Source: Escherichia coli (GTDB lineage: Bacteria; Pseudomonadota; Gammaproteobacteria; Enterobacterales; Enterobacteriaceae). From it: DNA of 64,000 bases. Location: NCBI RefSeq assembly GCF_024223415.1, contig NZ_CP100500.1, one strand, 5' to 3'. Numbering within the stretch: the stretch's first letter is position 1; the number at the start of each line of letters is the position of its first letter. The position numbers and the translations under genes were made by a program. The notes beneath the pieces are model-generated. The model was not told the DNA's origin, searched no databases, and saw nothing but the letters and a program-made list of their open reading frames with translations. Shown here piece after piece: positions 3,498 to 42,028 of the stretch.

Positions 3498-4031
3498 ATG
3501 AGCGCAAAAATCAAATACGGCCTGTCAGCTGCTGTTCTGGCGCTGATTGCTGCAGGCGCGTCTGCTCCTCAAATACTTGACCAGTTTCTGGATGAAAAAG
3601 AGGGTAACCACACTACGGCATACCGCGATGGTTCCGGTATATGGACCATCTGTCGTGGTGCCACAATGGTGGATGGTAAGCCCGTCATACCGGGAATGAA
3701 GCTGTCGAAGGAAAAATGCGACCAGGTTAACGCTATTGAACGTGATAAGGCGCTGGCATGGGTGGAGCGCAATATTAAAGTACCACTGACCGAACCACAA
3801 AAAGCGGGTATAGCGTCATTCTGTCCCTATAACATTGGCCCCGGTAAGTGTTTCCCGTCGACGTTTTATAAGCGGCTTAATGCCGGTGATCGTAAAGGTG
3901 CCTGTGAGTCGATTCGCTGGTGGATTAAGGACGGTGGGCGTGATTGCCGCACACGTTCAAATAACTGCTACGGACAGGTTATTCGTCGTGACCAGGAAGC
4001 AGCACTTGTGTGCTGGGATATCGACAGATGA
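3498..4031 (+). CDS. R: SAR endolysin (phage lysozyme, R21-like)
   Basis: 177 aa; N-terminal signal-anchor LSAAVLALIAAGASAP followed by lysozyme-like motifs (EGNHTTAYRDGSGIWTICRG); paired with a pinholin. Confidence 0.9.
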   Translation: MSAKIKYGLSAAVLALIAAGASAPQILDQFLDEKEGNHTTAYRDGSGIWTICRGATMVDGKPVIPGMKLSKEKCDQVNAIERDKALAWVERNIKVPLTEPQKAGIASFCPYNIGPGKCFPSTFYKRLNAGDRKGACESIRWWIKDGGRDCRTRSNNCYGQVIRRDQEAALVCWDIDR

Positions 4032-8765: not shown

Positions 8766-10354
8766 AAAGAACGCCTGTCCTGATTGATGTGAACGGCGTT
8801 CCGCTTCGTGAGAGTCTCAGCTACAACGGGGGCGGCGCAGGATTTGGCGGGCAAATGGCGGAGTGGTTGCCACCGGCGCAGAGTGTCGATGCGGCCCTGC
8901 TGCCCGCGTTGCGTCTGGGGAATGCCCGGGCAGATGATCTGGTGCGCAATAACGGAATAGCGGCTAATGCGGTGGCCCTGCATAAGGATCACATAGTCGG
9001 GCATATGTTTCTGATCAGCTACCGTCCGAACTGGCGCTGGCTGGGGATGCGGGAGACCGCAGCAAAAAGCTTTGTCGATGAGGTGGAGGCGGCCTGGTCG
9101 GAATACGCCGAAGGGATGTCTGGCGAGATCGACGTGGAAGGAAAACGCACGTTCACGGAATTTATCCGGGAAGGCGTGGGCGTTCATGCGTTTAACGGCG
9201 AAATCTTTGTGCAGCCGGTCTGGGATGCGGAGACTACGCAGCTGTTTCGTACGCGTTTTAAAGCCGTGAGTCCGAAACGGGTGGACACGCCAGGATACGG
9301 TTTGGGGAACCGCTTTCTGCGGGCCGGGGTGGAGGTCGATCGGCATGGACGGGCCGTTGCGTACCATATCTGTGAGGATGATTTTCCGCTCTCTGGTAGT
9401 GGACGATGGGAACGGATCCCGCGTGAACTTCCCACCGGGCGTCCGGCCATGCTGCATATTTTCGAGCCGGTTGAGGACGGGCAGACCCGTGGGGCTAATC
9501 AGTTTTACAGCGTCATGGAACGGCTGAAAATGCTCGATTCCCTGCAGGCAACACAGCTTCAGTCAGCCATAGTGAAGGCGATGTATGCAGCGACGATTGA
9601 AAGTGAACTTGATACCGAAAAGGCCTTTGAATATATCGCCGGTGCGCCGGAGGGGCAGAAGGATAATCCGCTTATTAATATTCTGGAGAAGTTCTCCAGC
9701 TGGTATGACACGAATAACGTGACACTGGGCGGTGTCAAAATTCCGCACCTTTTCCCCGGTGATGATCTGAAACTACAGACTGCGCAGGATTCAGACAATG
9801 GATTTTCTGCGCTTGAACAGGCGCTGCTGCGGTATATCGCCGCCGGTCTTGGCGTTTCCTACGAACAGTTGTCCCGTGATTACTCGAAGGTCAGCTATTC
9901 AAGTGCCCGCGCCTCCGCCAATGAGTCGTGGCGCTATTTTATGGGGCGGCGAAAATTTATTGCGGCCCGGCTGGCCACGCAGATGTTTTCCTGCTGGCTG
10001 GAAGAGGCTCTTCTGCGGGGGATTATTCGTCCGCCACGGGCGCGTTTTGATTTTTATCAGGCGCGTTCATCCTGGTCACGGGCAGAGTGGATTGGAGCCG
10101 GAAGAATGGCCATTGACGGGCTCAAGGAGGTCCAGGAATCGGTGATGCGCATTGAGGCCGGACTGAGCACGTATGAGAAAGAGCTGGCGCTGATGGGTGA
10201 GGATTATCAGGACATTTTCCGCCAGCAGGTCAGGGAATCTGCAGAGCGGGAAAAAGCCGGACTCTCACGTCCGGTGTGGATAGCGCAGGCGTATCAGCAG
10301 CAGATAGCGGCGAGTCGCAGGCCGGAAGAGGAGACAACACCACGTGAGACGTAA
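8762..10354 (+). CDS. B: Portal protein (gpB-like)
   Basis: 530 aa, lambda-B length and position; start overlaps the W stop. Confidence 0.9.
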   Translation: MKRTPVLIDVNGVPLRESLSYNGGGAGFGGQMAEWLPPAQSVDAALLPALRLGNARADDLVRNNGIAANAVALHKDHIVGHMFLISYRPNWRWLGMRETAAKSFVDEVEAAWSEYAEGMSGEIDVEGKRTFTEFIREGVGVHAFNGEIFVQPVWDAETTQLFRTRFKAVSPKRVDTPGYGLGNRFLRAGVEVDRHGRAVAYHICEDDFPLSGSGRWERIPRELPTGRPAMLHIFEPVEDGQTRGANQFYSVMERLKMLDSLQATQLQSAIVKAMYAATIESELDTEKAFEYIAGAPEGQKDNPLINILEKFSSWYDTNNVTLGGVKIPHLFPGDDLKLQTAQDSDNGFSALEQALLRYIAAGLGVSYEQLSRDYSKVSYSSARASANESWRYFMGRRKFIAARLATQMFSCWLEEALLRGIIRPPRARFDFYQARSSWSRAEWIGAGRMAIDGLKEVQESVMRIEAGLSTYEKELALMGEDYQDIFRQQVRESAEREKAGLSRPVWIAQAYQQQIAASRRPEEETTPRET

Positions 10355-11849
10355 TCTTTCACACATTATTGCCGCAGCATTCAATGAACCGCTGCTTCTG
10401 GAGCCCGCCTATGCGCGGGTTTTCTTTTGCGCGCTCGGGCGCGAGATGGGGGCAGCAAGTCTTTCGGTACCACAACAGCAGGTACAGCTTGATGCTCCCG
10501 GAATGCTGGCTGAAACGGACGAGTACATGGCCGGAGGTAAACGACCGGCCCGTGTTTACCGGGTGGTGAACGGTATTGCTGTACTGCCGGTGACCGGCAT
10601 GCTGGTGCACCGGCTGGGTGGTATGCGGCCATTTTCCGGAATGACAGGCTATGACGGCATTGTCGCCTGTCTTCAGCAGGCAATGGCGGACACCGCTGTC
10701 CGGGGCGTACTGCTGGACATTGACAGTCCGGGCGGGCAGGTCGCAGGCGCGTTTGACTGCGCTGACATGATTTACCGCCTCCGTCAGCAGAAGCCGGTCT
10801 GGGCACTGTGCAATGACACGGCCTGTTCTGCAGCCATGCTGCTGGCGTCGGCCTGCTCCCGACGGCTGGTTACCCAGACATCCCGTATCGGCTCCATTGG
10901 CGTGATGATGAGCCATCTCAGCTATGCCGGTCATCTGGCGCAGGCCGGTGTGGATATCACGCTGATTTATGCCGGGGCGCACAAGGTGGATGGCAATCAG
11001 TTTGAAGCCTTACCGGAAGAGGTGCGTCAGGACATGCAGCAGCGCATTGATGCGGCACACCGGATGTTTGCCGAAAAAGTGGCGATGTATACCGGGCTGT
11101 CTGTGGATGTGGTCACGGGAACAGAGGCCGCCGTTTTTGAAGGTCAGTCCGGCATTGAGGCCGGGCTGGCGGATGAATTAGTCAATGCGTCGGATGCCAT
11201 CAGTGTGATGACCACGGCGCTGTACACACATGATACAGGAGGCACTATGCCGCAATTAACTGCAACGGAAGCCGCCGCGCAGGAGAACCAGCGAGTGATG
11301 GGGATCCTGACGAGTAAGGAAGCGAAAGGACGTGAACAGCTTGCCACGATGCTGGCGGGACAACAGGGCATGAGCGTTGAACAGGCCCGGGAGATCCTGG
11401 CCGCGGCGGCACCACAGCAGCCGGTGGCATCCGCGCAGAGTGAAGCCGATCGCATTATGGCGTGTGAAGAGGCGAAAGGTCGTGAACAACTGGCGGCAAC
11501 GCTGGCGGCGATGCCGGAGATGACGGTGGAAAAAGCCCGCCCGATCCTGGCAGCTTCACCGCAGGCGGATGCCGGACCATCACTCCGTGATCAGATCATG
11601 GCCCTGGATGAGGCAAAAGGGGCTGAGGCGCAGGCTGAACAGCTGGCTGCCTGCCCGGGAATGACCGTGGAGAACGCCCGGGCTGTGCTGGCTGCGGGAT
11701 CAGGTAAGGCAGAACCGGTCTCTGCATCCACAACCGCCATGTTTGAACATTTCATGGCGAACCATTCACCGGCAGCGGTACAGGGTGGCGTGCCACAGAC
11801 GTCAGCAGACGGTGATGCGGACGTGAAAATGCTCATGGCCATGCCATGA
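10344..11849 (+). CDS. C: Head maturation protease / scaffold (gpC with nested Nu3-like region)
   Basis: N-terminal half aligns with lambda C (ClpP-like protease); C-terminal part has three tandem ~40-aa EAKGREQLA repeats. Confidence 0.85.
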   Translation: MRRNLSHIIAAAFNEPLLLEPAYARVFFCALGREMGAASLSVPQQQVQLDAPGMLAETDEYMAGGKRPARVYRVVNGIAVLPVTGMLVHRLGGMRPFSGMTGYDGIVACLQQAMADTAVRGVLLDIDSPGGQVAGAFDCADMIYRLRQQKPVWALCNDTACSAAMLLASACSRRLVTQTSRIGSIGVMMSHLSYAGHLAQAGVDITLIYAGAHKVDGNQFEALPEEVRQDMQQRIDAAHRMFAEKVAMYTGLSVDVVTGTEAAVFEGQSGIEAGLADELVNASDAISVMTTALYTHDTGGTMPQLTATEAAAQENQRVMGILTSKEAKGREQLATMLAGQQGMSVEQAREILAAAAPQQPVASAQSEADRIMACEEAKGREQLAATLAAMPEMTVEKARPILAASPQADAGPSLRDQIMALDEAKGAEAQAEQLAACPGMTVENARAVLAAGSGKAEPVSASTTAMFEHFMANHSPAAVQGGVPQTSADGDADVKMLMAMP

Positions 11850-12290: not shown

Positions 12291-13220
12291 ATGGGATTGT
12301 TTACGACCCGCCAGTTACTCGGTTATACCGAACAAAAAGTGAAATTTCGTGCGCTGTTTCTGGAGCTGTTTTTCCGTCGTACGGTGAATTTCCATACCGA
12401 AGAGGTGATGCTGGACAAAATTACCGGAAAAACGCCGGTGGCGGCCTATGTCTCCCCGGTTGTTGAAGGAAAAGTGCTGCGTCATCGTGGTGGTGAAACC
12501 CGCGTGTTGCGTCCGGGCTACGTCAAGCCGAAACACGAATTTAATTCCCGGCAGGCGGTTGAGCGCCTTCCTGGTGAAGATCCGGCTCAACTGAACGATC
12601 CGGCTTACCGCCGTCTGCGTATCATTACCGATAACCTCAAACAGGAAGAGCACGCGATTGTCCAGGTGGAAGAAATGCAGGCGGTAAATGCCGTGCTGTA
12701 TGGCAAATACACCATGGAAGGAGACCAGTTCGAGAAAATTGAGGTCGATTTTGGCAGGTCGACGAAGAATAACATTACGCAGGCCAGTGGTAAAAAATGG
12801 TCTGAGCACGATCGTGACACGTTCGATCCTGCGCATGATATTGACCTCTACTGCGACCAGGCCAGCGGCCTTGTGAATATTGCCATTATGGACGGTACCG
12901 TCTGGCGTCTGCTGAATGGTTTTAAGCTGTTCCGCGAAAAACTGGATACCCGTCGCGGTTCAAATTCGCAACTCGAAACGGCAGTGAAAGACCTGGGGGC
13001 GGTGGTGTCTTTCAAAGGGTATTACGGTGATCTGGCCATTGTGGTGGCGAAAACGTCTTATGTGGCAGAGGACGGTACCGAAAAACGTTATCTGCCAGAC
13101 GGCACGCTGGTCCTGGGGAATACTGCTGCAGATGGGATCCGTTGTTACGGTGCCATTCAGGATGCACAGGCGTTGTCTGAAGGAGTGGTGCCTCTTCCCG
13201 TTATCCGAAACACTGGCTGA
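12291..13220 (+). CDS. E: Major capsid protein E, apparently frameshifted near 13186 (C-terminal 44 codons continue in another frame to 13318)
   Basis: N-terminal 300 aa align with lambda gpE; after ...QALSEGV the frame reaches a stop, while frame +2 encodes ASSRYPKHWLTVGDPAREFTMTQSAPLMVLPDPDEFVVVQVK, the expected gpE C-terminus. Confidence 0.75.
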   Translation: MGLFTTRQLLGYTEQKVKFRALFLELFFRRTVNFHTEEVMLDKITGKTPVAAYVSPVVEGKVLRHRGGETRVLRPGYVKPKHEFNSRQAVERLPGEDPAQLNDPAYRRLRIITDNLKQEEHAIVQVEEMQAVNAVLYGKYTMEGDQFEKIEVDFGRSTKNNITQASGKKWSEHDRDTFDPAHDIDLYCDQASGLVNIAIMDGTVWRLLNGFKLFREKLDTRRGSNSQLETAVKDLGAVVSFKGYYGDLAIVVAKTSYVAEDGTEKRYLPDGTLVLGNTAADGIRCYGAIQDAQALSEGVVPLPVIRNTG

Positions 13221-13327
13221 CGGTGGGGGATCCCGCCCGTGAATTTACCATGACGCAGTCCGCGCCGCTGATGGTGTTGCCGGACCCGGATGAGTTTGTG
13301 GTGGTACAGGTGAAATAATCCGTGAGC

Positions 13328-14668: not shown

Positions 14669-15060
14669 AAAATACTGATATCCGTACAGCCGTACTGGAT
14701 GCACTGGAGAAGCATGACACCGGGGCGACGTTTTTTGATGGTCGCCCCGCTGTTTTTGATGAGGCGGATTTTCCGGCAGTTGCCGTTTATCTCACCGGCG
14801 CTGAATACACGGGCGAAGAGCTGGACAGCGATACCTGGCAGGCGGAGCTGCATATTGAAGTTTTCCTGCCTGCTCAGGTGCCGGATTCAGAGCTGGATTC
14901 GTGGATGGAGTCCCGGATTTATCCGGTGATGAGCGATATCCCGGCACTGTCAGATTTGATCACCAGTATGGTGGCCAGTGGCTATGACTACCGGCGCGAC
15001 GATGATGCGGGCCTGTGGAGTTCAGCCGATCTGACTTATGTCATTACCTATGAAATGTGA
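14665..15060 (+). CDS. U: Minor tail protein U (tail terminator)
   Basis: 131 aa, near-identical to lambda gpU (…[46 protein letters not shown]…). Confidence 0.95.
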
Positions 15061-15067
15061 GGACGAT

Positions 15068-15808
15068 ATGCCAACACCAAATCCTCTGGCACCGGTGAAA
15101 GGGGCCGGGACCACACTGTGGGTTTATAAGGGGAACGGTGACCCTTATGCGAACCCGCTTTCAGACAATGACTGGTCGCGTCTGGCTAAAGTTAAAGACC
15201 TGACGCCCGGCGAACTGACCGCAGATTTCTATGACGACAGCTATCTCGATGATGAAGATTCGGACTGGGCCGCGACCGGACAGGGGCAGAAATCCGCCGG
15301 AGATACCAGCTTCACGCTGGCGTGGATGCCCGGAGAGCAGGGGCAGCAGGCGCTGCTGGCGTGGTTTAATGAAGGTGATACCCGTGCCTATAAAATCCGC
15401 TTCCCGAACGGCACGGTCGATGTGTTCCGCGGCTGGGTCAGCAGCATCGGTAAGGCGGTGACAGCGAAGGAAGTGATCACCCGCACGGTGAAAGTCACCA
15501 ACGTGGGACGTCCGTCGATGGCAGAAGATCGCAGCACGCTAACAGCGGCAACCGGCATGACCGTGACGCCTGCCAGCACCTCGGTGGTGAAAGGGCAGAG
15601 CACCACGCTGACCGTGGCATTCCAGCCGGAAGGCGCAACCGACAAGAGCTTCCGTGCGGTGTCTGCGGATAAAACAAAAGCCACCGTGTCGGTCAGTGGT
15701 ATGACCATCACCGTGAAGGGCGTTGCTGCAGGCAGGGTCAACATTCCGGTCGTATCCGGTAATGGTGAACTTGCTGCGGTTGCAGAAATCAACGTCACCG
15801 CCAGTTAA
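15068..15808 (+). CDS. V: Major tail protein V
   Basis: 246 aa, lambda V length; C-terminal Ig-like region. Confidence 0.9.
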
Positions 15809-15823: not shown

Positions 15824-16246
15824 ATGTTCCTGAAAAACGAATCATTTGAACATAACGGCGTGACCGTCACGCTTTCTGAACTGTCAGCCCTGCAGCGTAT
15901 TGAGCATCTTGCCTGGTTGAAAGAGCAGGAAAAAAAGGCTGAATCCAGTGGCAACCTGCAGGTGTCTGTAGAGGATCTTATCAGAGGCGGGGCGTTTCTG
16001 GTGGCGATGTCTCTGTGGCATAACCATCCGCAGAAGACAAAGCTGCTGCCCATGAATGAAGCCATTACGCAGATTGAGCAGGAAGTGCTTACCACCTGGC
16101 CCACGGAGGCAATTGCTCAGGCTGAAAACGTGGTGTTACGTCTGTCCGGAATGTCTGAGTTTGTTGTGAATAATGCCCCTGAACAGGCAGATGACGCCGG
16201 GCCTGCAGAGCCTGTTTCTGCGGGAAAGTGTTCGACGGTGAGCTGA
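15824..16246 (+). CDS. G: Tail assembly chaperone G
   Basis: 140 aa; ends just after the slippery heptamer GGGAAAG. Confidence 0.9.
   Translation: MFLKNESFEHNGVTVTLSELSALQRIEHLAWLKEQEKKAESSGNLQVSVEDLIRGGAFLVAMSLWHNHPQKTKLLPMNEAITQIEQEVLTTWPTEAIAQAENVVLRLSGMSEFVVNNAPEQADDAGPAEPVSAGKCSTVS
16222..16228 (+). promoter_or_regulatory. Programmed -1 ribosomal frameshift slippery site (G GGA AAG) producing the G-T fusion
   Basis: Exact lambda G/GT heptamer located 6 codons before the G stop; the T frame opens here. Confidence 0.8.
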
Positions 16247-16662
16247 GTTTTGCCCTGAAACTGGCGCGTGAGATGGGGCGACCCGACTGGCGCGCCATGC
16301 TTGCCGGGATGTCATCCACGGAGTATGCCGACTGGCACCGCTTTTACAGTACCCATTATTTTCATGATGTTCTGCTGGATATGCACTTTTCCGGGCTGAC
16401 GTACACCGTGCTCAGCCTGTTTTTCAGCGATCCGGATATGCATCCGCTGGATTTCAGTCTGCTGAACCGGCGCGAGGCTGACGAAGAGCCTGAAGATGAT
16501 GTGCTGATGCAGAAAGCGGCAGGGCTTGCCGGAGGCGTCCGCTTTGGCCCGGACGGGAATGAAGTTATCCCTGCATCCCCGGATGTGGCGGACATGACGG
16601 AGGATGACGTAATGCTGATGACAGTATCAGAAGGGATCGCAGGAGGAGTCCGGTATGGCTGA
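16228..16662 (+). CDS. T: Tail assembly protein T (made only as a G-T fusion by -1 frameshift)
   Basis: -1 frame ORF extending from the slippery site to the start of H. Confidence 0.8.
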   Translation: MFDGELSFALKLAREMGRPDWRAMLAGMSSTEYADWHRFYSTHYFHDVLLDMHFSGLTYTVLSLFFSDPDMHPLDFSLLNRREADEEPEDDVLMQKAAGLAGGVRFGPDGNEVIPASPDVADMTEDDVMLMTVSEGIAGGVRYG

Positions 16663-19216
16663 ACCGGTAGGCGATCTGGTCGTTGATTTAAGTCTGGATG
16701 CGGCCAGGTTTGACGAGCAGATGGCCAGAGTCAGGCGTCATTTTTCCGGTACGGAAAGTGATGCGAAAAAAACAGCGGCAGTCGTTGAACAGTCAATGAA
16801 CCGGCAGGCGCTGGCTGCACAGAAAGCGGGGATTTCCGTCGGACAGTATAAAGCCGCCATGCGTATGCTGCCTGCACAGTTCACCGACGTGGCCACACAG
16901 CTTGCAGGCGGGCAGAGTCCGTGGCTGATCCTGCTGCAACAGGGTGGTCAGGTGAAGGACTCCTTCGGCGGGATGATCCCCATGTTCAGGGGGCTTGCCG
17001 GTGCGATCACCCTGCCGATGGTCGGGGCCACCTCGCTGGCGGTGGCGACCGGTGCGCTGGCGTATGCCTGGTATCAGGGCAACTCAACCCTGTCCGATTT
17101 CAACAAAACGCTGGTCCTTTCCGGCAATCAGGCGGGACTGACGGCAGATCGTATGCTGGTCCTGTCCAGAGCCGGGCAGGCGGCAGGGCTGACGTTTAAC
17201 CAGACCAGCGAGTCACTCAGCGCACTGGTTAAGGCGGGGGTAAGCGGTGAGGCTCAGATTGCGTCCATCAGCCAGAGTGTGGCGCGTTTCTCCTCTGCAT
17301 CCGGCGTGGAGGTGGACAAGGTCGCTGAAGCCTTCGGGAAGCTGACCACAGACCCGACGTCGGGGCTGACGGCGATGGCGCGCCAGTTCCATAACGTGAC
17401 GGCGGAGCAGATTGCGTATGTTGCTCAGTTGCAGCGTTCCGGCGATGAGGCAGGGGCATTGCAGGCGGCGAACGAGGCCGCAACGAAAGGGTTTGATGAC
17501 CAGACCCGCCGCCTGAAAGAGAACATGGGCACGCTGGAAACCTGGGCAGACAGGACAGCACGGGCATTCAAATCCATGTGGGATGCGGTGCTGGATACTG
17601 GTCGTCCTGATACCGCGCAGGAGATGCTGATTAAGGCAGAGGCCGCGTTTAAGAAAGCGGACGATATCTGGAATCTGCGCAAGGATGATTATTTTGTTAA
17701 CGATGAAGCGCGGGCGCGTTACTGGGATGATCGTGAAAAGGCCCGTCTTGCGCTTGAAGCCGCCCGAAAGAAGGCTGAGCAGCAGAGTCAACAGGACAAA
17801 AATGCGCAGCAGCAGAGCGATACCGAAGCGTCACGGCTGAAATATACCGAAGAGGCGCAGAAGGCTTACGAACGCCTGCAGACACCGCTGGAGAAATATA
17901 CCGCCCGTCAGGAAGAACTGAACAAGGCACTGAAAGACGGAAAAATCCTGCAGGCAGATTACAACACGCTGATGGCGGCGGCGAAAAAGGATTATGAAGC
18001 GACGCTGAAAAAGCCGAAACAGTCCGGCGTGAAGGTGTCTGCGGGCGATCGTCAGGAAGACAGTGCTCATGCCGCCCTGCTGACGCTTCAGGCAGAACTC
18101 CGGACGCTGGAGAAGCATGCCGGAGCAAATGAGAAAATCAGCCAGCAGCGCCGGGATTTGTGGAAGGCGGAGAGTCAGTTCGCGGTACTGGAGGAGGCGG
18201 CGCAACGTCGCCAGCTGTCTGCACAGGAGAAATCCCTGCTGGCGCATAAAGATGAGACGCTGGAGTACAAACGCCAGCTGGCTGCACTTGGCGACAAGGT
18301 TACGTATCAGGAGCGCCTGAACGCGCTGGCGCAGCAGGCGGATAAATTCGCACAGCAGCAACGGGCAAAACGGGCCGCCATTGATGCGAAAAGCCGGGGG
18401 CTGACTGACCGGCAGACAGAACGGGAAGCCACGGAACAGCGCCTGAAGGAACAGTATGGCGATAATCCGCTGGCGCTGAATAACGTCATGTCAGAGCAGA
18501 AAAAGACCTGGGCGGCTGAAGACCAGCTTCGCGGGAACTGGATGGCAGGCCTGAAGTCCGGCTGGAGTGAGTGGGAAGAGAGCGCCACGGACAGTATGTC
18601 GCAGGTAAAAAGTGCAGCCACGCAGACCTTTGATGGAATTGCACAGAATATGGCGGCGATGCTGACCGGCAGTGAGCAGAACTGGCGCAGCTTCACCCGT
18701 TCCGTGCTGTCCATGATGACAGAAATTCTGCTTAAGCAGGCAATGGTGGGGATTGTCGGGAGTATCGGCAGCGTCATTGGCGGTGCTGCCGGTGGTGGCG
18801 CATCAGTGTCAGGCGGTACAGCCATTCAGGCTGCTGCGGCAAAATTCCATTTTGCGACCGGGGGATTTACGGGAACCGGCGGCAAATATGAGCCAGCGGG
18901 GATTGTTCACCGTGGTGAGTTTGTCTTCACGAAGGAGGCAACCAGCCGGATTGGCGTGGGAAATCTCTACCGGCTGATGCGCGGCTATGCCACTGGTGGT
19001 TATGTCGGTGGCACCGGAAGTCCGGCACAAATGCGGCGTTCAGAGGGTATCAGGTTTGAGCAGAACAACAACGTGGTGATTCAGAACGACGGTACGAATG
19101 GTCTGCCAGGTCCACAGATGCTGAAGGCGGTGTATGACATGGCCCGCAAGGGTGCCCGTGATGAAATTCAGACACAGATGCGTGATGGTGGTCTGTTCTC
19201 CGGAGGTGGACGATGA
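16655..19216 (+). CDS. H: Tail tape measure protein H
   Basis: 853 aa, the same length as lambda H; coiled-coil-rich with a Gly-rich C-terminal region. Confidence 0.9.
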   Translation: MAEPVGDLVVDLSLDAARFDEQMARVRRHFSGTESDAKKTAAVVEQSMNRQALAAQKAGISVGQYKAAMRMLPAQFTDVATQLAGGQSPWLILLQQGGQVKDSFGGMIPMFRGLAGAITLPMVGATSLAVATGALAYAWYQGNSTLSDFNKTLVLSGNQAGLTADRMLVLSRAGQAAGLTFNQTSESLSALVKAGVSGEAQIASISQSVARFSSASGVEVDKVAEAFGKLTTDPTSGLTAMARQFHNVTAEQIAYVAQLQRSGDEAGALQAANEAATKGFDDQTRRLKENMGTLETWADRTARAFKSMWDAVLDTGRPDTAQEMLIKAEAAFKKADDIWNLRKDDYFVNDEARARYWDDREKARLALEAARKKAEQQSQQDKNAQQQSDTEASRLKYTEEAQKAYERLQTPLEKYTARQEELNKALKDGKILQADYNTLMAAAKKDYEATLKKPKQSGVKVSAGDRQEDSAHAALLTLQAELRTLEKHAGANEKISQQRRDLWKAESQFAVLEEAAQRRQLSAQEKSLLAHKDETLEYKRQLAALGDKVTYQERLNALAQQADKFAQQQRAKRAAIDAKSRGLTDRQTEREATEQRLKEQYGDNPLALNNVMSEQKKTWAAEDQLRGNWMAGLKSGWSEWEESATDSMSQVKSAATQTFDGIAQNMAAMLTGSEQNWRSFTRSVLSMMTEILLKQAMVGIVGSIGSVIGGAAGGGASVSGGTAIQAAAAKFHFATGGFTGTGGKYEPAGIVHRGEFVFTKEATSRIGVGNLYRLMRGYATGGYVGGTGSPAQMRRSEGIRFEQNNNVVIQNDGTNGLPGPQMLKAVYDMARKGARDEIQTQMRDGGLFSGGGR

Positions 19217-27788: not shown

Positions 27789-28534
27789 AACTGATAAAAA
27801 AACCCCTCTGAAAATTCTGTCAGAGGGGGGCAAGGATCTATATTTATTATGCAGTAATGCTTTCACTCCGGTAATTAATTTCCGTGATTAACTGCTTTCG
27901 ATCAATAAAGGAATTGCAAAAAGGTGATCTTGTTCACGACATCGTGGATGATAATATGCCTGATGTCTGAATCCGGAAACAGTGATCTGGCGGGTTTCAT
28001 GTGAAGTTGACGGATAAAAAAATCCGCACGACCAGACAGACGTGCGGTTTACGAAATTCGTAACAAGAGGCTTTTCTACGGATCACGTGGTGCGTGCCAC
28101 GTGAAATTTTTGTAGCGCAAAATGTGTAATGTGTAAATACAAGGAAGGAAAAAGTTAAATCGGTGGAAGTCCATGCCTGCCACATGTATGTCTGCATTCC
28201 TCGTTTTGAACAGAATTCTCACCAGACATCGTGAATTTCTCATTCAATCATCAGAGATATTAACCAGGATTTTTATTGTTTTGTGATATCAGCAGTGCAG
28301 GTATACAGACATTAAAGTAATCAGGTTTATTATAACCACCTTTACAAAGTTGTATGTGTTTATAATTTAAGGATTTTAATCCCAGTCGTTTTCTGCTGCT
28401 TAAATTGAGGGCGCATATTATACACAATAATATTCCTGGCATTATTAAATTAATAAAAGAGGATTCTTATCACTGTATTTTTGCTCCGCACTACCGTTCT
28501 GGCTGGTGAAGTAATAATACAGGAGAATAACAGA

Positions 28535-29644
28535 ATGCTTAAAAGACGTGATGCTTTTTTAAAGAAAAGCGCGCTGGCAGTGAGTGTGGCCCTGCTGCTC
28601 TCATCTCAGGCTTCGGCTCATAAAACAATTACTGATTCAACGGCGGGTATTATCTGGATTGATGGTGGCGGTCAGTCACTTGAAAAAGTAGCTGTGATTG
28701 ACCGTCAACTAAATGATACAGGATATAATTTTGCCGTAGGTAGTGGTGCAGCAATTCTGGATGCGGATAAATCCATGGCAACAGGAAATAATACAGCTGT
28801 TTTTAATGCAGACAACAGTGTCGCTCTGGGGTATGGCTCTCAGGTGAATGGAGAAAGCAATGTACTTTCTGTAGGGGCCGGTCCTTCAGGATATGGATTT
28901 TCAGTTGATGGTGCACCGGAAACCCGCCGGATTATAAATGTTTCAGATGGTGTTAAGGATAGTGATGCGGCCACAAAAGGACAGATGGACAACGCCATTG
29001 CAGATGCTGTACGGGAGTCGGGGGATGCCCTGCGCGGTGAGATAGGAGCTGTCTACCGTGATGCTGTTGCTGATGCTAAGAGTCGAGTGGAATCGGCAGA
29101 AAACAGACTTAACGGTAATATTACAGCTGCCAGGGCTTCTGCGCAGGAATACACGGATGCGGTGAAGTCGGATGTTCTGGACGAGACGCGTACATATACA
29201 GACAGCAGTGTGCGTACTGTCCGTAACGAGGTGAAAAGCCAGGCAGAACATCTCAGCGATGTGCTTGTGAAGAACAGGGCGCAGACGGATGCAGCAATAG
29301 CCTCAAATACAGCAGCGATAAGGAATAACAGTCATCGTCTGGATTTGACGGAAGCCTGGCAGAAGATGGCGACAGAGAGAATGAATAATATGCAGGAGCA
29401 GATTAAAGAGAACCGGAAGGAGTTAAGGGAGAGTGCAGCCCAGAGCGCGGCACTGGCCGGTCTTTTCCAGCCATACAGTGTTGGAAAATTTAACGCGACA
29501 GCAGCCGTTGGTGGTTACCGTGATGAGCAGGCCATTGCGGTGGGCGTGGGCTACCGTTTCACAGAGAATGTGGCAGGAAAAGTTGCAGTTGCTGCAGGTG
29601 GGTCATCCGCATCGTGGAATGCTGGTGTGAATTTTGAGTTCTGA
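28535..29644 (+). CDS. Trimeric autotransporter adhesin, YadA-like (Eib-family-like)
   Basis: Signal peptide, head/neck motifs (INVSDGVKDSDAATKGQMDNAIAD), coiled-coil stalk and C-terminal anchor ending AGVNFEF; SD AGGAGA. Confidence 0.8.
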   Translation: MLKRRDAFLKKSALAVSVALLLSSQASAHKTITDSTAGIIWIDGGGQSLEKVAVIDRQLNDTGYNFAVGSGAAILDADKSMATGNNTAVFNADNSVALGYGSQVNGESNVLSVGAGPSGYGFSVDGAPETRRIINVSDGVKDSDAATKGQMDNAIADAVRESGDALRGEIGAVYRDAVADAKSRVESAENRLNGNITAARASAQEYTDAVKSDVLDETRTYTDSSVRTVRNEVKSQAEHLSDVLVKNRAQTDAAIASNTAAIRNNSHRLDLTEAWQKMATERMNNMQEQIKENRKELRESAAQSAALAGLFQPYSVGKFNATAAVGGYRDEQAIAVGVGYRFTENVAGKVAVAAGGSSASWNAGVNFEF

Positions 29645-31074: not shown

Positions 31075-31295
31075 CGTCTCACCCTTGCTCGCGAGGTCCC
31101 GGTTTAACTTTAGACGCAGTTTTGCGAACCAGGTAGTTTTGCCCGTTTTTTGTGCATCTATAGGGTGATTTTATTTTTGCCAGGCGATTTTGAGTGATCG
31201 TACTCACGAATTCTCATTTTTCTGCAAGAGTTCAAAGAAAGTTAAACGCAGGCAATGTATGTTACGCGTTTTAAAGGGAAGTGTGGTTTGCGGGT

Positions 31296-32981
31296 ATGTA
31301 CGATTTTAATCTGGTGTTGCTGCTGCTTCAGCAGATGTGCGTTTTTTTAGTCATTGCATGGTTAATGAGTAAAACGCCATTATTCATACCGTTAATGCAG
31401 GTCACGGTTCGTCTGCCGCATAAATTTCTCTGCTACATCGTCTTTTCCATCTTCTGCATCATGGGCACCTGGTTTGGGTTGCACATTGACGATTCTATTG
31501 CCAATACCCGTGCGATAGGCGCGGTAATGGGCGGCTTACTCGGCGGTCCGGTCGTCGGTGGGCTGGTTGGGCTGACCGGCGGCTTACATCGATATTCGAT
31601 GGGGGGCATGACCGCGTTAAGTTGCATGATCTCGACCATCGTTGAAGGATTACTCGGTGGCCTGGTACACAGCATCCTGATCCGCCGCGGGCGCACTGAT
31701 AAAGTCTTTAACCCCATTACCGCCGGTGCCGTCACGTTCGTCGCTGAAATGGTGCAAATGCTGATCATCCTTGCGATCGCCCGACCTTATGAAGATGCGG
31801 TGCGTCTGGTGAGTAATATTGCTGCGCCAATGATGGTCACCAATACCGTCGGCGCGGCGCTGTTTATGCGTATATTGCTCGATAAACGCGCGATGTTTGA
31901 AAAATACACTTCGGCTTTTTCTGCCACTGCGCTGAAAGTGGCAGCCTCGACGGAAGGCATTTTGCGCCAGGGGTTTAACGAAGTGAACAGCATGAAAGTG
32001 GCTCAGGTGCTGTATCAGGAACTGGATATTGGTGCAGTCGCGATTACCGATCGAGAGAAATTGCTGGCCTTTACCGGAATTGGTGACGACCACCATTTAC
32101 CCGGCAAACCGATTTCTTCAACTTATACTTTAAAAGCGATTGAAACCGGTGAAGTGGTCTACGCTGATGGCAACGAAGTACCTTACCGTTGCTCTTTGCA
32201 TCCGCAATGCAAACTGGGGTCGACGCTGGTAATTCCGTTGCGTGGTGAAAATCAGCGGGTGATGGGCACCATCAAATTGTATGAAGCCAAAAACCGTTTA
32301 TTCAGTTCAATCAACCGCACGTTGGGTGAGGGGATTGCGCAATTGCTTTCGGCGCAGATCCTTGCCGGGCAATATGAGCGGCAAAAAGCGATGCTCACCC
32401 AGTCAGAGATCAAACTGCTTCACGCCCAGGTGAATCCCCATTTTTTGTTTAATGCGCTTAACACCATTAAAGCGGTGATCCGCCGCGACAGCGAACAGGC
32501 CAGCCAGCTGGTGCAGTATCTTTCCACTTTTTTCCGCAAAAACTTAAAGCGGCCTTCGGAGTTTGTTACTCTCGCCGACGAAATTGAACATGTGAATGCT
32601 TATCTGCAAATTGAAAAGGCGCGCTTCCAGTCGCGGTTGCAGGTCAACATTGCTATTCCGCAAGAATTATCCCAGCAGCAATTGCCCGCGTTTACCCTGC
32701 AACCGATAGTGGAAAACGCCATTAAACATGGGACATCACAACTGCTGGATACAGGGCGAGTGGCAATCAGCGCCCGACGTGAGGGGCAACATTTGATGCT
32801 GGAGATCGAAGACAATGCCGGTTTGTATCAACCGGTAACCAATGCCAGTGGGCTGGGGATGAATCTGGTGGATAAGCGTTTACGTGAACGGTTTGGCGAT
32901 GACTATGGAATAAGCGTCGCCTGTGAGCCTGATAGTTACACCCGAATAACGTTACGACTACCATGGAGGGACGAGGCATGA
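31296..32981 (+). CDS. btsS: Sensor histidine kinase BtsS (YehU), LytS family
   Basis: 561 aa; 5TM-LytS, GAF and HisKA_3/HATPase domains; followed by a LytTR regulator. Confidence 0.95.
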
Positions 32982-33697
32982 TTAAAGTCTTAATTGTCGA
33001 TGATGAACCGTTAGCACGGGATAACCTGCGTGTATTTTTGCAGGAGCAGAGCGATATTGAAATCGTTGGAGAGTGTTCAAACGCCGTGGAAGGGATCGGC
33101 GCGGTGCATAAACTGCGCCCGGATGTGCTGTTTCTCGATATCCAGATGCCGCGCATCAGTGGTCTGGAAATGGTGGGGATGCTTGACCCGGAACATCGCC
33201 CGTATATTGTTTTTCTCACTGCGTTTGACGAATACGCAATTAAAGCCTTTGAAGAACATGCCTTTGATTATCTGCTGAAGCCAATTGATGAAGCGCGACT
33301 GGAGAAAACGCTGGCGCGATTGCGTCAGGAGCGCAGCAAGCAGGATGTTTCGCTGTTACCGGAAAATCAACAGGCGCTGAAATTTATCCCTTGTACGGGG
33401 CATAGTCGGATTTATTTGCTGCAAATGAAAGATGTGGCATTTGTCAGCAGTCGGATGAGCGGTGTCTACGTTACCAGCCACGAAGGGAAAGAGGGCTTTA
33501 CCGAATTGACATTACGTACCCTGGAAAGTCGTACACCACTACTGCGCTGCCATCGTCAGTATCTGGTTAACCTCGCGCATTTACAGGAGATTCGTCTGGA
33601 AGATAACGGCCAGGCCGAGTTGATTTTGCGTAATGGCTTAACCGTGCCGGTCAGCCGCCGTTATCTGAAAAGCTTAAAAGAGGCGATTGGCCTGTAA
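32978..33697 (+). CDS. btsR: Response regulator BtsR (YehT), LytTR family
   Basis: 239 aa; receiver domain [18 protein letters not shown] plus LytTR DNA-binding domain. Confidence 0.95.
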
Positions 33698-37973: not shown

Positions 37974-40245
37974 GGAAAACTCCCCAGTTTTGCAGCGATG
38001 CCAGTGCCTGCTGTTCGAGTTGTTGATGATGTGCAATGGCCTGTGGTGGACAATGCAACGGCATTTGCAGCGCCGAAACGGGAAGTTGCGCCAGTTGATA
38101 ATGCTCAAGCACCTGATGCGCCAGCGTCCCGCGTTCTCGTGGTGGTAGCCAGGCCATCGCCGCGCGTAAATCGGGCAGGGCGTTAATAAAATCGGCTTCA
38201 CTCAGTTGATTTAAATGACTGCTGAAACCAGCGATAAATGCCGGCTGACAGGCCAGTTGATGGCGGGCCAGCGCCAGCAAACCGTGCAGCGCCTCACCAG
38301 ATTGTGCCGGGGATAACTGCGCCAGCATCGTCAGCGCCGCTTCGGCACTGGCGTTGGGATGTTCCAGACGCATTAGTGCGCCAAGAGCCGCGCCGCGATC
38401 CAGCGCCGGGGCATGAATTGCCTGACTGCGTCGCTCCAGTAAGGCTACCGCCGCAGAAAGAGAAACGCCGGGTAAATTAACGCCGCTATGTAGATCGCGC
38501 AGAATATGGCAAAGCGCTTGCCAGCTATGCAGGTGAGCGTGAAACTCCTTTTCATCCGGTCTGCCGTTAGATTCACACAGCCACAGCGTGCGATCGATAG
38601 TCGCGCATAACGTCGTTTGTAATATCTGCGCGCCTTGCATACCGCTAATTTCATCCAGCCGCCATAAGGCATAAAGCACTTCCAGCGCCTGGCCCATTTC
38701 GGCAAATTGATTTTCCTGGGCGATTAATAGTGTGAGTTGCTCCAGTAATTGTTGACTGAAGGACGCCAGACCCGCTAACGCCGCCTGGCTAAGACATGTG
38801 GTGATACTGCCGATTCCGCCCGCGTCCAGCATATCGGCTTCTAATTTATTGCGTGCGGCTTCCTGGAGTGTGGCACCAAAACAGGCGGCCTCAATCAATG
38901 CCGCATGCTGGCTAAGCGGGCGGGTTAATTTCCAGCGTTCTTCACCGTTGCCTGCAAGTGTCAGTGTACTTCCCTGCTGGCGTACAATCCCAGGGATCTC
39001 CAGTATTGCCAGCCGATGTAACACCTGACTTTGCGCCAGCCCATCGGGGGTAAAGCGATTTAAGGTAAGCTCCGCCGGAAGGGAGATTGCGGTACGTTCC
39101 AGTTCGCAGGTGACATCTTTTGGCAGAGGCGGTTGTGGCGTAGAAGGGGCAAGTTTACCGAATCCGTCACCCGCTAATGTGTCTATCAACGTTAGCAGAA
39201 TCGGATCGGTATCGGGATGAATAACGCCGCGATAGCTCCACGGCAACGGCGCGTTCAGGGCTTCTTTAATCAGCGAGCCTGCTATGGCATCCAGCCAGTC
39301 AGTGCGTAACGGTAGTGTATGACCGCGCAACTGTGCCAGCGCCATCGCATGCAGATGAGCGGCAGCCATATCCGCGGTAGAAGCGGGCAATTTGTGCTGG
39401 CGCAAACGGGTAAGGATAGTTTTTAGCAGTTGTTCACCGGCCTTCTGCAAGCCCCACTGCCAGCACCAGTTTTGCCATACCGGGGCAGGCATTCCTGAAA
39501 GGTATCCTGCCAGCACATCAAGGCGCTTTTCACTGTAGGGTGTGAGATAACAACCTGTAACGGCATCTGCCAGCGAGGGCAATTCTGGCTTGTTAATTTT
39601 CTGAGGGCATTCGCGCCACATCTTTGCCAGTGCCGGAGCGTGCCAGCCACCGCAGACAACTAACACGTCGCCATTATTTTGCTGCATCGCCCATCCAATC
39701 CAGCGGGCCATAAAGGCTTCGCGCTGACGATTGAGCGCATCGCCGGAGGCGTCGCCCCGCAGTTGGGCAAAATAGTGCGCCAGCGCAGAGGGTAATGCAG
39801 TTTGCTGGCTTTCATCTTCGAACAAGTGATCCCACAGGGTATCGCTGTTATCCATGCGGGTGGCACGCAGCAGTAAGGCCTGGCTTTCATCTTGCGTATC
39901 AGGCGAATCGTCCTCTTCTTCACTCTGCGCCCAGCAAGGCAAATCGATGAAGTAAGTTTGTGCCTGAATGCGACGTGCGGCTTGTAGCGCCTGCCACTCC
40001 GGCGAAAATTCAGCAAATGGCGTCCAGGCACCACGCCCGGGGGCTGCACCGTCCTGATACTGGCAATAACTGTAAATAGCTACCGGAAGCTGGTGGGCTA
40101 AAAACAGTTCGTCTACCCGGTCATTAAAATCAGCCGGGCCTTCAATCAACACGTATCGTGGCCGCTGGCTTTCGATTAACGATTTCACCAGCCGGGCGCA
40201 GGCCGGACTATGATGCCGGATGCCGACAATTAACGGCTCGCTCAT
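37966..40245 (-). CDS. yehM: YehM
   Basis: 759 aa from MSEPLIVGIRHH...; operon context. Confidence 0.85.
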   Translation of the reverse strand: MSEPLIVGIRHHSPACARLVKSLIESQRPRYVLIEGPADFNDRVDELFLAHQLPVAIYSYCQYQDGAAPGRGAWTPFAEFSPEWQALQAARRIQAQTYFIDLPCWAQSEEEDDSPDTQDESQALLLRATRMDNSDTLWDHLFEDESQQTALPSALAHYFAQLRGDASGDALNRQREAFMARWIGWAMQQNNGDVLVVCGGWHAPALAKMWRECPQKINKPELPSLADAVTGCYLTPYSEKRLDVLAGYLSGMPAPVWQNWCWQWGLQKAGEQLLKTILTRLRQHKLPASTADMAAAHLHAMALAQLRGHTLPLRTDWLDAIAGSLIKEALNAPLPWSYRGVIHPDTDPILLTLIDTLAGDGFGKLAPSTPQPPLPKDVTCELERTAISLPAELTLNRFTPDGLAQSQVLHRLAILEIPGIVRQQGSTLTLAGNGEERWKLTRPLSQHAALIEAACFGATLQEAARNKLEADMLDAGGIGSITTCLSQAALAGLASFSQQLLEQLTLLIAQENQFAEMGQALEVLYALWRLDEISGMQGAQILQTTLCATIDRTLWLCESNGRPDEKEFHAHLHSWQALCHILRDLHSGVNLPGVSLSAAVALLERRSQAIHAPALDRGAALGALMRLEHPNASAEAALTMLAQLSPAQSGEALHGLLALARHQLACQPAFIAGFSSHLNQLSEADFINALPDLRAAMAWLPPRERGTLAHQVLEHYQLAQLPVSALQMPLHCPPQAIAHHQQLEQQALASLQNWGVFHV

Positions 40246-40255
40246 GCATCTTTCC

Positions 40256-41344
40256 TCACGGCAGGCGGTGGCGGGCTTGATAATAAGCCTGCCAGTGAGC
40301 TTCTTTATGTGTGGCGACACGCTGTTCGAAGTAACGGCGCAGACGCGCGCGATCTTCTTCGTTATCTTTGACGATGGTTCCGGCAATACATTCCACCAGG
40401 TCGGCAGGCTCCCCCGCGCGATTCGCTAAAAACCAGGCGCGGACGCCCACAGCATGGGCCACGTTCACGGCTTCAGCGGTGGACATAATCGCTGTCAGTG
40501 TATCCATTGACGTTTTCTTTTCGCCGTTGGCACGCAGATCGCGGAAGGTGCGGACCAGTAATTCCAGTACCGCGTCAGGCACTTTATGCGGAATACCGCT
40601 ATGGGCCAGCAAACGCGCCGAAGCACTGGCGACCAGTTCCAACTCCTGGGCGAAATCCATAATCGGAAAAACCGTTTCAAAATCGAAGCGACGCTTTAGC
40701 GCAGCACTCATTTCATTGACGCCGCGATCGCGGGTATTGGCAGTGGCAATAATATTAAAGCCTTCTCGCGCATAGAGCTGACTGGCTTCACCAGTGAGTT
40801 CCGGCACCGTCATCACCCTGTCAGAAAGCATACCTAACAGACAGTCCTGCACTTCCAGCGGTGTACGCGTTATCTCTTCGAAACGGACGATTTTGCCGTC
40901 GCGCATTCCCTGATAAAGCGGGGCAGGGACCAGCGCTTCCGTTGACGGACCATGATTGATAAGCAAGGCGTAGTTCCAGCCATACTTGATTTGATCTTCG
41001 GTGGTAGATGCCCCGCCCTGGATGGTTAACCCGGCATCGCCGCTAATAGCGGTTGCCAGTAATTCAGAAAGAAGAGATTTTGCGGTACCCGGTTCCCCCA
41101 CCAACATCAAACCGCGGCCGGTAGCAAGAGTGACTAACATACGTTCGACAGCGGAGGGGCTAATCACCACTTTACGGCTGATATTTTGCGCTTCGTCGCC
41201 AAGGATAAAAGCACGGGCCGCAGGCAAACTTAACTGCCAACCGGGCGGGCAAGGTGCGTTATCATTTTGTTTTAATTTTGCCAGTTCATCGGCGTATAAC
41301 ACAGCAGCAGGCGGACGCTGCAGATGATTATTCTGCGGTGACAT
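40256..41344 (-). CDS. yehL: YehL, MoxR-like AAA+ ATPase
   Basis: 362 aa; Walker A GEPGTAKS. Confidence 0.85.
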   Translation of the reverse strand: MSPQNNHLQRPPAAVLYADELAKLKQNDNAPCPPGWQLSLPAARAFILGDEAQNISRKVVISPSAVERMLVTLATGRGLMLVGEPGTAKSLLSELLATAISGDAGLTIQGGASTTEDQIKYGWNYALLINHGPSTEALVPAPLYQGMRDGKIVRFEEITRTPLEVQDCLLGMLSDRVMTVPELTGEASQLYAREGFNIIATANTRDRGVNEMSAALKRRFDFETVFPIMDFAQELELVASASARLLAHSGIPHKVPDAVLELLVRTFRDLRANGEKKTSMDTLTAIMSTAEAVNVAHAVGVRAWFLANRAGEPADLVECIAGTIVKDNEEDRARLRRYFEQRVATHKEAHWQAYYQARHRLP

Positions 41345-41650
41345 ATATTCATCCCTGAAATGTATTAATGAAATAAACGATATTTTACGCGCAATAAATG
41401 TTTGGCGCATTAGTTGTTTGAGCGAAAAATATCTGGAAAGCAGATCACAGTAAATAAAAAAACCTGCTGGTGAGGCAGGTTCTTTTATTTACTATTTTCA
41501 GGCCTAACACCACAGCCTGTGCAACATCGTGTTCCAACGAACGAATTATAACCACGGCTGGACCCCGTTGCAATTAAGATAATGAGATTTATAATCCAGG
41601 CCATTGGGACGTTGCGCCGGATCGGACCAATTTGAATTATTTAGAGTATA

Positions 41651-41968
41651 TTATTCTATTTCTTGGTTGAATATATTCTGTAGTTCACGATTAAAAATTG
41701 CTATTACAGTTTCAGGTGATTCACCTCGTAATTTCCGCTCATCAATACACTCATCTCTTATATAAATCAACGCATCATTTATTAGCGGGTCAGCATCTTC
41801 TCGATCACGTTGATGAAATGTTGGACGTAGCCGGAATCGCTCCAGTCGATAGACGGAACCTGTAAATAATTCAGAGCATTTATGGATCTCAAGTCTGAAG
41901 GAAAACGGATCTTCAGGTACAGGGACCTCATAATCGTAAATAGCAACCAGCTCTTTTTGCACGATCAT
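41651..41968 (-). CDS. yehK: YehK
   Basis: 105-aa conserved small protein. Confidence 0.8.
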   Translation of the reverse strand: MIVQKELVAIYDYEVPVPEDPFSFRLEIHKCSELFTGSVYRLERFRLRPTFHQRDREDADPLINDALIYIRDECIDERKLRGESPETVIAIFNRELQNIFNQEIE

Positions 41969-42028
41969 CGCTTTCCCCGCTGGTAAGTCGTGTTGATAAC
42001 GGGCAGTTGCATCACTGCCCGCTGTGTT

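Follow-up and report, generated by a model that had tools for sequence, protein, structure and literature searches.

A lambda-like G-T slippery site in the tail gene module of an Escherichia coli prophage and its reading as a programmed −1 frameshift signal

The closest described system is the pair of overlapping tail genes G and T of bacteriophage lambda, for which a −1 frameshift was experimentally established by Levin et al. (1993), as cited in passages of PMC5009743, PMC3296357 and PMC7618472. According to the passages of PMC5009743 that deal with lambda, a low-level −1 shift near the 3′ end of G yields gpG and gpGT in a molar ratio of ∼30:1, which is crucial for tail assembly, and neither protein is present in the virion. 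The same passages, citing Xu, Hendrix & Duda (2013, 2014), relate that the G moieties bind the tape-measure protein and that the T domain binds the major tail protein. In E. coli few heptamers are as shift-prone as G_GGA_AAG, and the only tRNA-Lys of this species forms a better pair with AAA than with AAG (PMC5009743). In lambda ∼96% of ribosomes keep the frame and the rate of shifting is a few percent (PMC3296357), and loss of the 2-thiolation of tRNA-Lys (mnm5s2U34) leads to more slippage and to a lower phage yield (PMC3296357; PMC7618472).

Related systems are known at different distances from this prototype. A tail chaperone frameshift is conserved in long-tailed dsDNA phages (Xu, Hendrix & Duda 2004, as cited in a passage of PMC5009743). 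Like the locus described here, this class has an overlapping ORF pair between the major tail and tape-measure genes, and low-level frameshifting towards the end of the first ORF gives a longer product; what defines the class is position and architecture, its members showing little sequence similarity to one another, whereas the present element is a close relative of the lambda prototype. Nearer to it are the G/T pairs of N15 (gene 14/15), mEp213, LLS and phi80-like phages, which are homologous to the present locus (47–55% identity to the fusion protein), share its overlap architecture and likewise carry the slip site 7 codons before the G stop in N15, mEp213 and LLS. They differ from it in two respects: their heptamer, G GAA AAG, departs from the strict X_XXY_YYZ pattern, and their T segment has only 113–115 amino acids (aa), without the second C-terminal LM...GGVRYG repeat. 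Outside the phages, E. coli dnaX (A_AAA_AAG) resembles the locus in its tandem −1 slip, in which tRNA-Lys on the A-site AAG re-pairs to AAA (PMC5009743). The two differ in outcome, the shifted product being shorter in dnaX and longer at a G-T site. Shifting in dnaX amounts to ∼50% and is driven by an upstream Shine–Dalgarno-like element together with a closely spaced 3′ stem-loop.

The locus considered here was found in the window, i.e. the whole stretch of 64,000 nucleotides (nt) that was analysed, where two overlapping ORFs are flanked, in the same way as in lambda, by the major tail gene V on one side and the tape-measure gene H on the other. All four genes lie on the + strand. V, the major tail tube gene, covers 15038–15808 (Pfam Phage_TTP_12, E = 3.5e-69, and Big_2) and aligns to lambda V; these limits are those of a mechanical ORF, and the lambda-equivalent start is at ∼15068. 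G, the tail assembly chaperone gene, covers 15824–16246, from the ATG at 15824 to the stop codon TGA at 16244–16246, and its zero-frame product has 140 aa. Its assignment is supported by Pfam PF06894 Phage_TAC_2 (E = 2.1e-51) and by the NCBIfam equivalog TIGR01674 phage_lambda_G (184.6 bits for a cutoff of 74.45), and its DNA is 93% identical to lambda G. The T segment follows in the −1 frame at 16228–16662 (144 codons plus stop) and would be read only as the C-terminal part of a G-T fusion; it matches Pfam PF06223 Phage_tail_T (‘Minor tail protein T’; E = 2.2e-14) and the NCBIfam equivalog TIGR01715 phage_lam_T (185.8 bits for a cutoff of 77.35). The T stop overlaps the start of H (ATGGCTGA at 16655–16662), likewise in lambda, and H itself encodes 853 aa at 16655–19216 (Pfam TMP_2, E = 7.4e-70; Tape_meas_lam_C, E = 2.1e-21). 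At its C-terminus (16495–16659), T contains an internal repeat, LMQKAAGLAGGVRFGPDG then LMTVSEGIAGGVRYG, in both the window and lambda; the shorter T segments of N15, CP-1639, mEp213 and LLS contain the first copy only.

The anatomy of the junction is read directly from the translations. The last −1-frame stop upstream is the TGA at 16192–16194, and from 16195 the −1 frame stays open as far as the TGA at 16660–16662. Between that upstream stop and the G stop, the two frames overlap over 52 nt (16195–16246, + strand), and nowhere else can a −1 shift lead from G into T. The overlap holds just one in-phase slippery heptamer, GGGAAAG at 16222–16228 (+ strand), identical in sequence and position to lambda 10109–10115. 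The codon boundaries of G at this place, GC[G GGA AAG], give the X_XXY_YYZ phase that tandem −1 slippage requires. Counted from the GGG of the post-shift reading GGG AAA, the −1 frame has 146 codons, and the dipeptide at the heptamer is Gly-Lys in both frames. The first-pass annotation had placed GGGAAAG at these very coordinates, at the end of G and with the T frame open downstream; its positions and description are exact. G stops 7 codons after the heptamer, which is in the required phase, and the open −1 frame matches the T families.

A fusion protein was built from G codons 1–135, through AAG, and the 144 −1-frame codons that begin with the GTG at 16228 (15824–16228 joined to 16228–16662). 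The predicted product has 279 aa, and it is matched by TIGR01674 on residues 1–136 and by TIGR01715 on residues 140–245, both far above cutoff. Its synthesis is envisaged as follows. Most ribosomes translating G would pass G GGA AAG without leaving the frame and terminate 7 codons further on, giving the 140-aa gpG. A small fraction would slip with a P-site tRNA-Gly on GGA and an A-site tRNA-Lys on AAG, both tRNAs moving back by one base to re-pair with GGG and AAA. [quoted passage not shown] On the lambda model, gpG and gpGT would coat the tape-measure protein H through their G moieties, and gpGT would recruit the tail tube protein V through its T moiety, while the slip frequency would set a fixed and high G:GT ratio.

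The likeness to lambda is close at every level of comparison. Over its 839 nt, the G-T segment shares 93.2% identity with lambda J02459 9711–10549, position 16222 of the window corresponding to lambda 10109, and in a four-way alignment a run of 87 consecutive nt spanning the heptamer is identical in the window, lambda, HK630 and one E. coli prophage. The same heptamer thus stands in the same place in both, 7 codons before the G stop, and the sizes of G (140 aa) and of the G-T fusion (279 aa) are shared as well, as is the gene order V-G-T-H. The differences are a nucleotide divergence of ∼7% elsewhere in G and T, an additional in-phase A AAA AAG in G (codons 36–38) that lambda G does not have, and the setting, the present element being a chromosomal prophage whose capsid gene is possibly broken. 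Similar G-T segments are widespread, being found in 3,690 of the 5,426 complete E. coli genomes of the collection, none of which carries an identical one (best match, 99.0%).

The heptamer by itself has no evidential weight. Bare GGGAAAG is not enriched in the 64 kb (9 copies, compared with 8.35 ± 2.8 in dinucleotide-preserving shuffles), and in-phase XXXYYYZ heptamers occur at the random rate over all stop-to-stop ORFs (156 seen, 150 expected). A mechanical scan of stop-to-stop ORFs of at least 80 codons, for an in-phase XXXYYYZ heptamer with a long −1 frame behind it, put the G-T site no higher than 11th when hits were ordered by the length of the open −1 frame. The ten cases with longer frames appear to be short spurious ORFs overlapping real genes in another frame, and such a scan, made without gene calls, cannot single out the G-T site. 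Because the bare motif is at chance level, the case rests on context and comparison.

Comparison was extended to the annotated relatives N15, PhiR12_1, CP-1639, mEp213, LLS and Klebsiella phage Kp4865-4, and to a further 80 loci from viral contigs, retrieved by a query built from eight aligned G-T fusions. An in-phase shift-prone heptamer was found inside the G/T overlap in 84 of the 85 complete G ORFs, in nearly every case at a distance of exactly 7 codons from the G stop, and its retention holds down to ∼47% protein identity. It is GGGAAAG in 77 of these ORFs, GGAAAAG in four and AAAAAAG in three. The remaining ORF, with no in-phase heptamer (IMGVR_UViG_2695420576_000005, 1501–2340), is a decayed copy in which an upstream indel truncates G to 124 aa and places the N-terminus of G in the T frame; GGGAAAG is still there, at 1903. 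The zero-frame dipeptide varies among homologues (Gly-Lys, Glu-Lys or Lys-Lys), and so do the flanking codons, but the last four bases, AAAG, which include the A-site AAG, are invariant. Since the dipeptide changes while the slippery bases stay, the constraint is on the nucleotides that re-pair and not on either protein sequence.

With the signal and its surroundings identical to those of lambda, the same mechanism is the best explanation here, and the site is very probably a lambda-type programmed −1 ribosomal frameshift of the G/T chaperone genes of a lambdoid prophage in the E. coli chromosome. This agrees on all sequence-level points with the first-pass annotation, which had described a conserved programmed G-T frameshift ‘as in lambda’: the gene order and the identity around the site bear out the comparison, the homologous loci bear out the conservation, and production of the G-T protein by this prophage would follow the lambda scheme. 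Slippage in this element, and its rate, we infer by analogy.

The alternative that retains most credit accepts the signal as genuine, yet regards it as a relic in a defective prophage that forms no virions and has no current use for it. We consider this possible, though on balance unlikely. It draws on the lambda E-like major capsid gene at 12291–13319, in which a 1-nt deletion was found at ∼13189/13190 relative to the closest homologue: the window reads GGAGTGGT-GCCTC where E. coli AR_0085, otherwise 99.9% identical, reads GGAGTGGTGGCCTC. As a consequence, the capsid ORF stops at 13220 after 309 aa, and the conserved C-terminus (SSRYPKHWLTVGDPAREFTMTQSAPLMVLPDPDEFVVVQVK) runs on in another frame to 13319. 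The gap is shared by none of the 10 best-listed matches among complete E. coli genomes. Either the prophage is defective and the gene a pseudogene, or the gap is a sequencing error; were the gap real, head formation would be prevented. The lack of an identical G-T segment in the complete E. coli genomes points the same way. Against this, none of the other head and tail ORFs that were checked (portal, 1593 nt; protease, 1506 nt; Z, 576 nt; U, 396 nt; and G, T and H) differs in length from its counterpart in the intact relative. An isolated one-base gap may be an error of sequencing or assembly, and the tail genes could still be expressed and complement other phages. Moreover, a relic concerns the present use of the site and not the identity of the signal, so that the reading as a lambda-type frameshift site is left as it stands.

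Some further features of the element and its neighbourhood were recorded. A Gram-negative porin gene lies at 75–1178 on the − strand (Pfam Porin_1, E = 2.7e-127), a cluster of three tRNA genes (Met-CAT, Arg-TCT and Thr-TGT) at 1777–2009 on the + strand, and a phage lysozyme gene at 3498–4031 on the + strand, upstream of the terminase and head genes; all three are taken to be putative accessory or late-region cargo of the prophage. At 28481–29644 (+ strand), an ORF of 387 aa combines a YadA-like membrane anchor with a stalk, in the manner of a trimeric autotransporter adhesin. It sits just after the tail fibre and tail fibre assembly genes and before host genes, and may represent cargo carried close to the right end of the prophage. 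The host genes in question, a btsS/btsR-like two-component pair (31281–33697), come after the prophage tail fibre genes, and the region 40000–44000 is 100% identical to the yehI-yehM region of several E. coli strains.

Stimulatory elements were sought on both sides of the heptamer. No AGGAGG-like element, i.e. no Shine–Dalgarno-like stimulator, is evident in the 30 nt upstream of it, and no 3′ stem-loop or pseudoknot at ∼5–9 nt after it is supported by the z-score of the minimum free energy (MFE) fold or by the fold of 14 homologues. The 102 nt that follow the heptamer (16229–16330) have an MFE fold of −42.7 kcal/mol, with a z-score of −2.0 (9 of 200 shuffles fold as well). The RNAalifold consensus of 14 diverse homologues, which reach down to ∼47% protein identity, contains a candidate GC-rich hairpin (TGGCGCGTGAG...GACTGGCGCGCCA) at 16262–16297 (+ strand), in the T coding sequence and 33 nt 3′ of the heptamer. 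This hairpin falls in the most conserved part of T (LAREMGRPDWRAM), and its stem is either nearly invariant, synonymous positions included, or changed on one side only, a compensatory change being seen in just 1 of 31 pairs among the 14 homologues. Synonymous variation, estimated from 75 distinct G-T sequences, is lowest at 16205–16260, over the overlap and just beyond it (observed/expected, 0.33–0.62); as it is also low over the whole T core (0.4–0.8), no separate RNA element can be claimed from synonymous sites. The hairpin was accordingly rejected as a demonstrated stimulator: a distance of 33 nt is too far, compensatory support is lacking and the z-score is only −2.0. It probably lies outside the frameshift signal. 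Levin and colleagues are said to have found in 1993 that a simple downstream hairpin is not required for the lambda frameshift. No stimulator is demonstrated here, in which the site differs from the stimulated cassettes of dnaX or IS type, and the heptamer alone is the supported signal.

The additional heptamer inside G was considered as well. A AAA AAG at 15931–15937 (codons 36–38) is in phase and has the sequence of the dnaX shift site; it is present in 14 of the 85 G homologues and absent in lambda. A −1 shift at this place would end after 3 codons (KKG*) and give a truncated peptide of ∼39 aa, and the heptamer is probably a tolerated, non-programmed site. That the hairpin at 16262–16297, this inner heptamer or both tune the output of G and G-T in this lineage is quite improbable; if it were so, either feature would represent a second layer of recoding control above the classical slip site.

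In public records T mostly appears as a CDS of its own, 144 aa long and beginning with the GTG that overlaps the heptamer (16228–16662 in the window; 10115–10549 in lambda J02459; also PGAP), and these annotations are what speaks for T as an independent gene that is initiated at the GTG at 16228 without any frameshift, the heptamer being incidental. Such initiation is very hard to credit. The GTG directly abuts the heptamer and has no Shine–Dalgarno sequence at a workable distance; the −1 frame opens just 9 codons upstream of the heptamer, and that stretch contains no ATG. At the position of this GTG, right after the heptamer, homologues have GCC, GCA, GCG, GTC or GTA and no start codon. An independent T would moreover not require that slipperiness be kept, through three different heptamers, in 84 of 85 homologues. 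T sequence is reported only within gpGT (PMC5009743), and the few records that mark the frameshift include the curated ones of N15 and LLS, in which the homologous heptamer is annotated as a −1 frameshift site (with a joined CDS in LLS), as well as HK630, which lists ‘GT’. As judged from sequence, T is without a plausible translation initiation signal of its own; the free-standing T would be a systematic annotation artefact and the real product the 279-aa G-T fusion predicted here.

It can also be argued that the heptamer is kept only by dual coding, in that the same bases encode the C-terminus of G and the N-terminus of T while slippage is not selected. The depressed synonymous variation over the overlap is what dual coding predicts, but the residues encoded at the site vary in both frames (AGK, AEK, VEK or SKK in the zero frame; GK or KK in the −1 frame), the codons on either side change freely as well, and yet every variant of the site is a known shift-prone heptamer, X_XXA_AAG or G_GAA_AAG. 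None of the 84 intact copies has an overlap devoid of a shift-prone sequence, and without a shift the T frame would have no route to translation at all, which makes this account no more credible than independent initiation. The weakest alternative, in which G and T are joined by RNA polymerase slipping on the A run and not by the ribosome, could appeal to the six A residues of AAAAAAG in some homologues, but it is extremely improbable given that the window and lambda have only 3 A residues at the site, bacterial transcriptional slippage being described on runs of ∼9 A or T (PMC5009743), and that the dependence of the lambda event on tRNA-Lys modification points to the ribosome (PMC3296357).

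The lambda-type programmed frameshift is thus the reading retained, and as such the site is a further copy of the textbook lambda G-T frameshift, which is already known and brings nothing biologically new. Its value lies mainly in annotation, where the predicted 279-aa fusion, in place of a free-standing T, would correct the proteome of the prophage and mark its V-G-T-H tail module as lambda-like.
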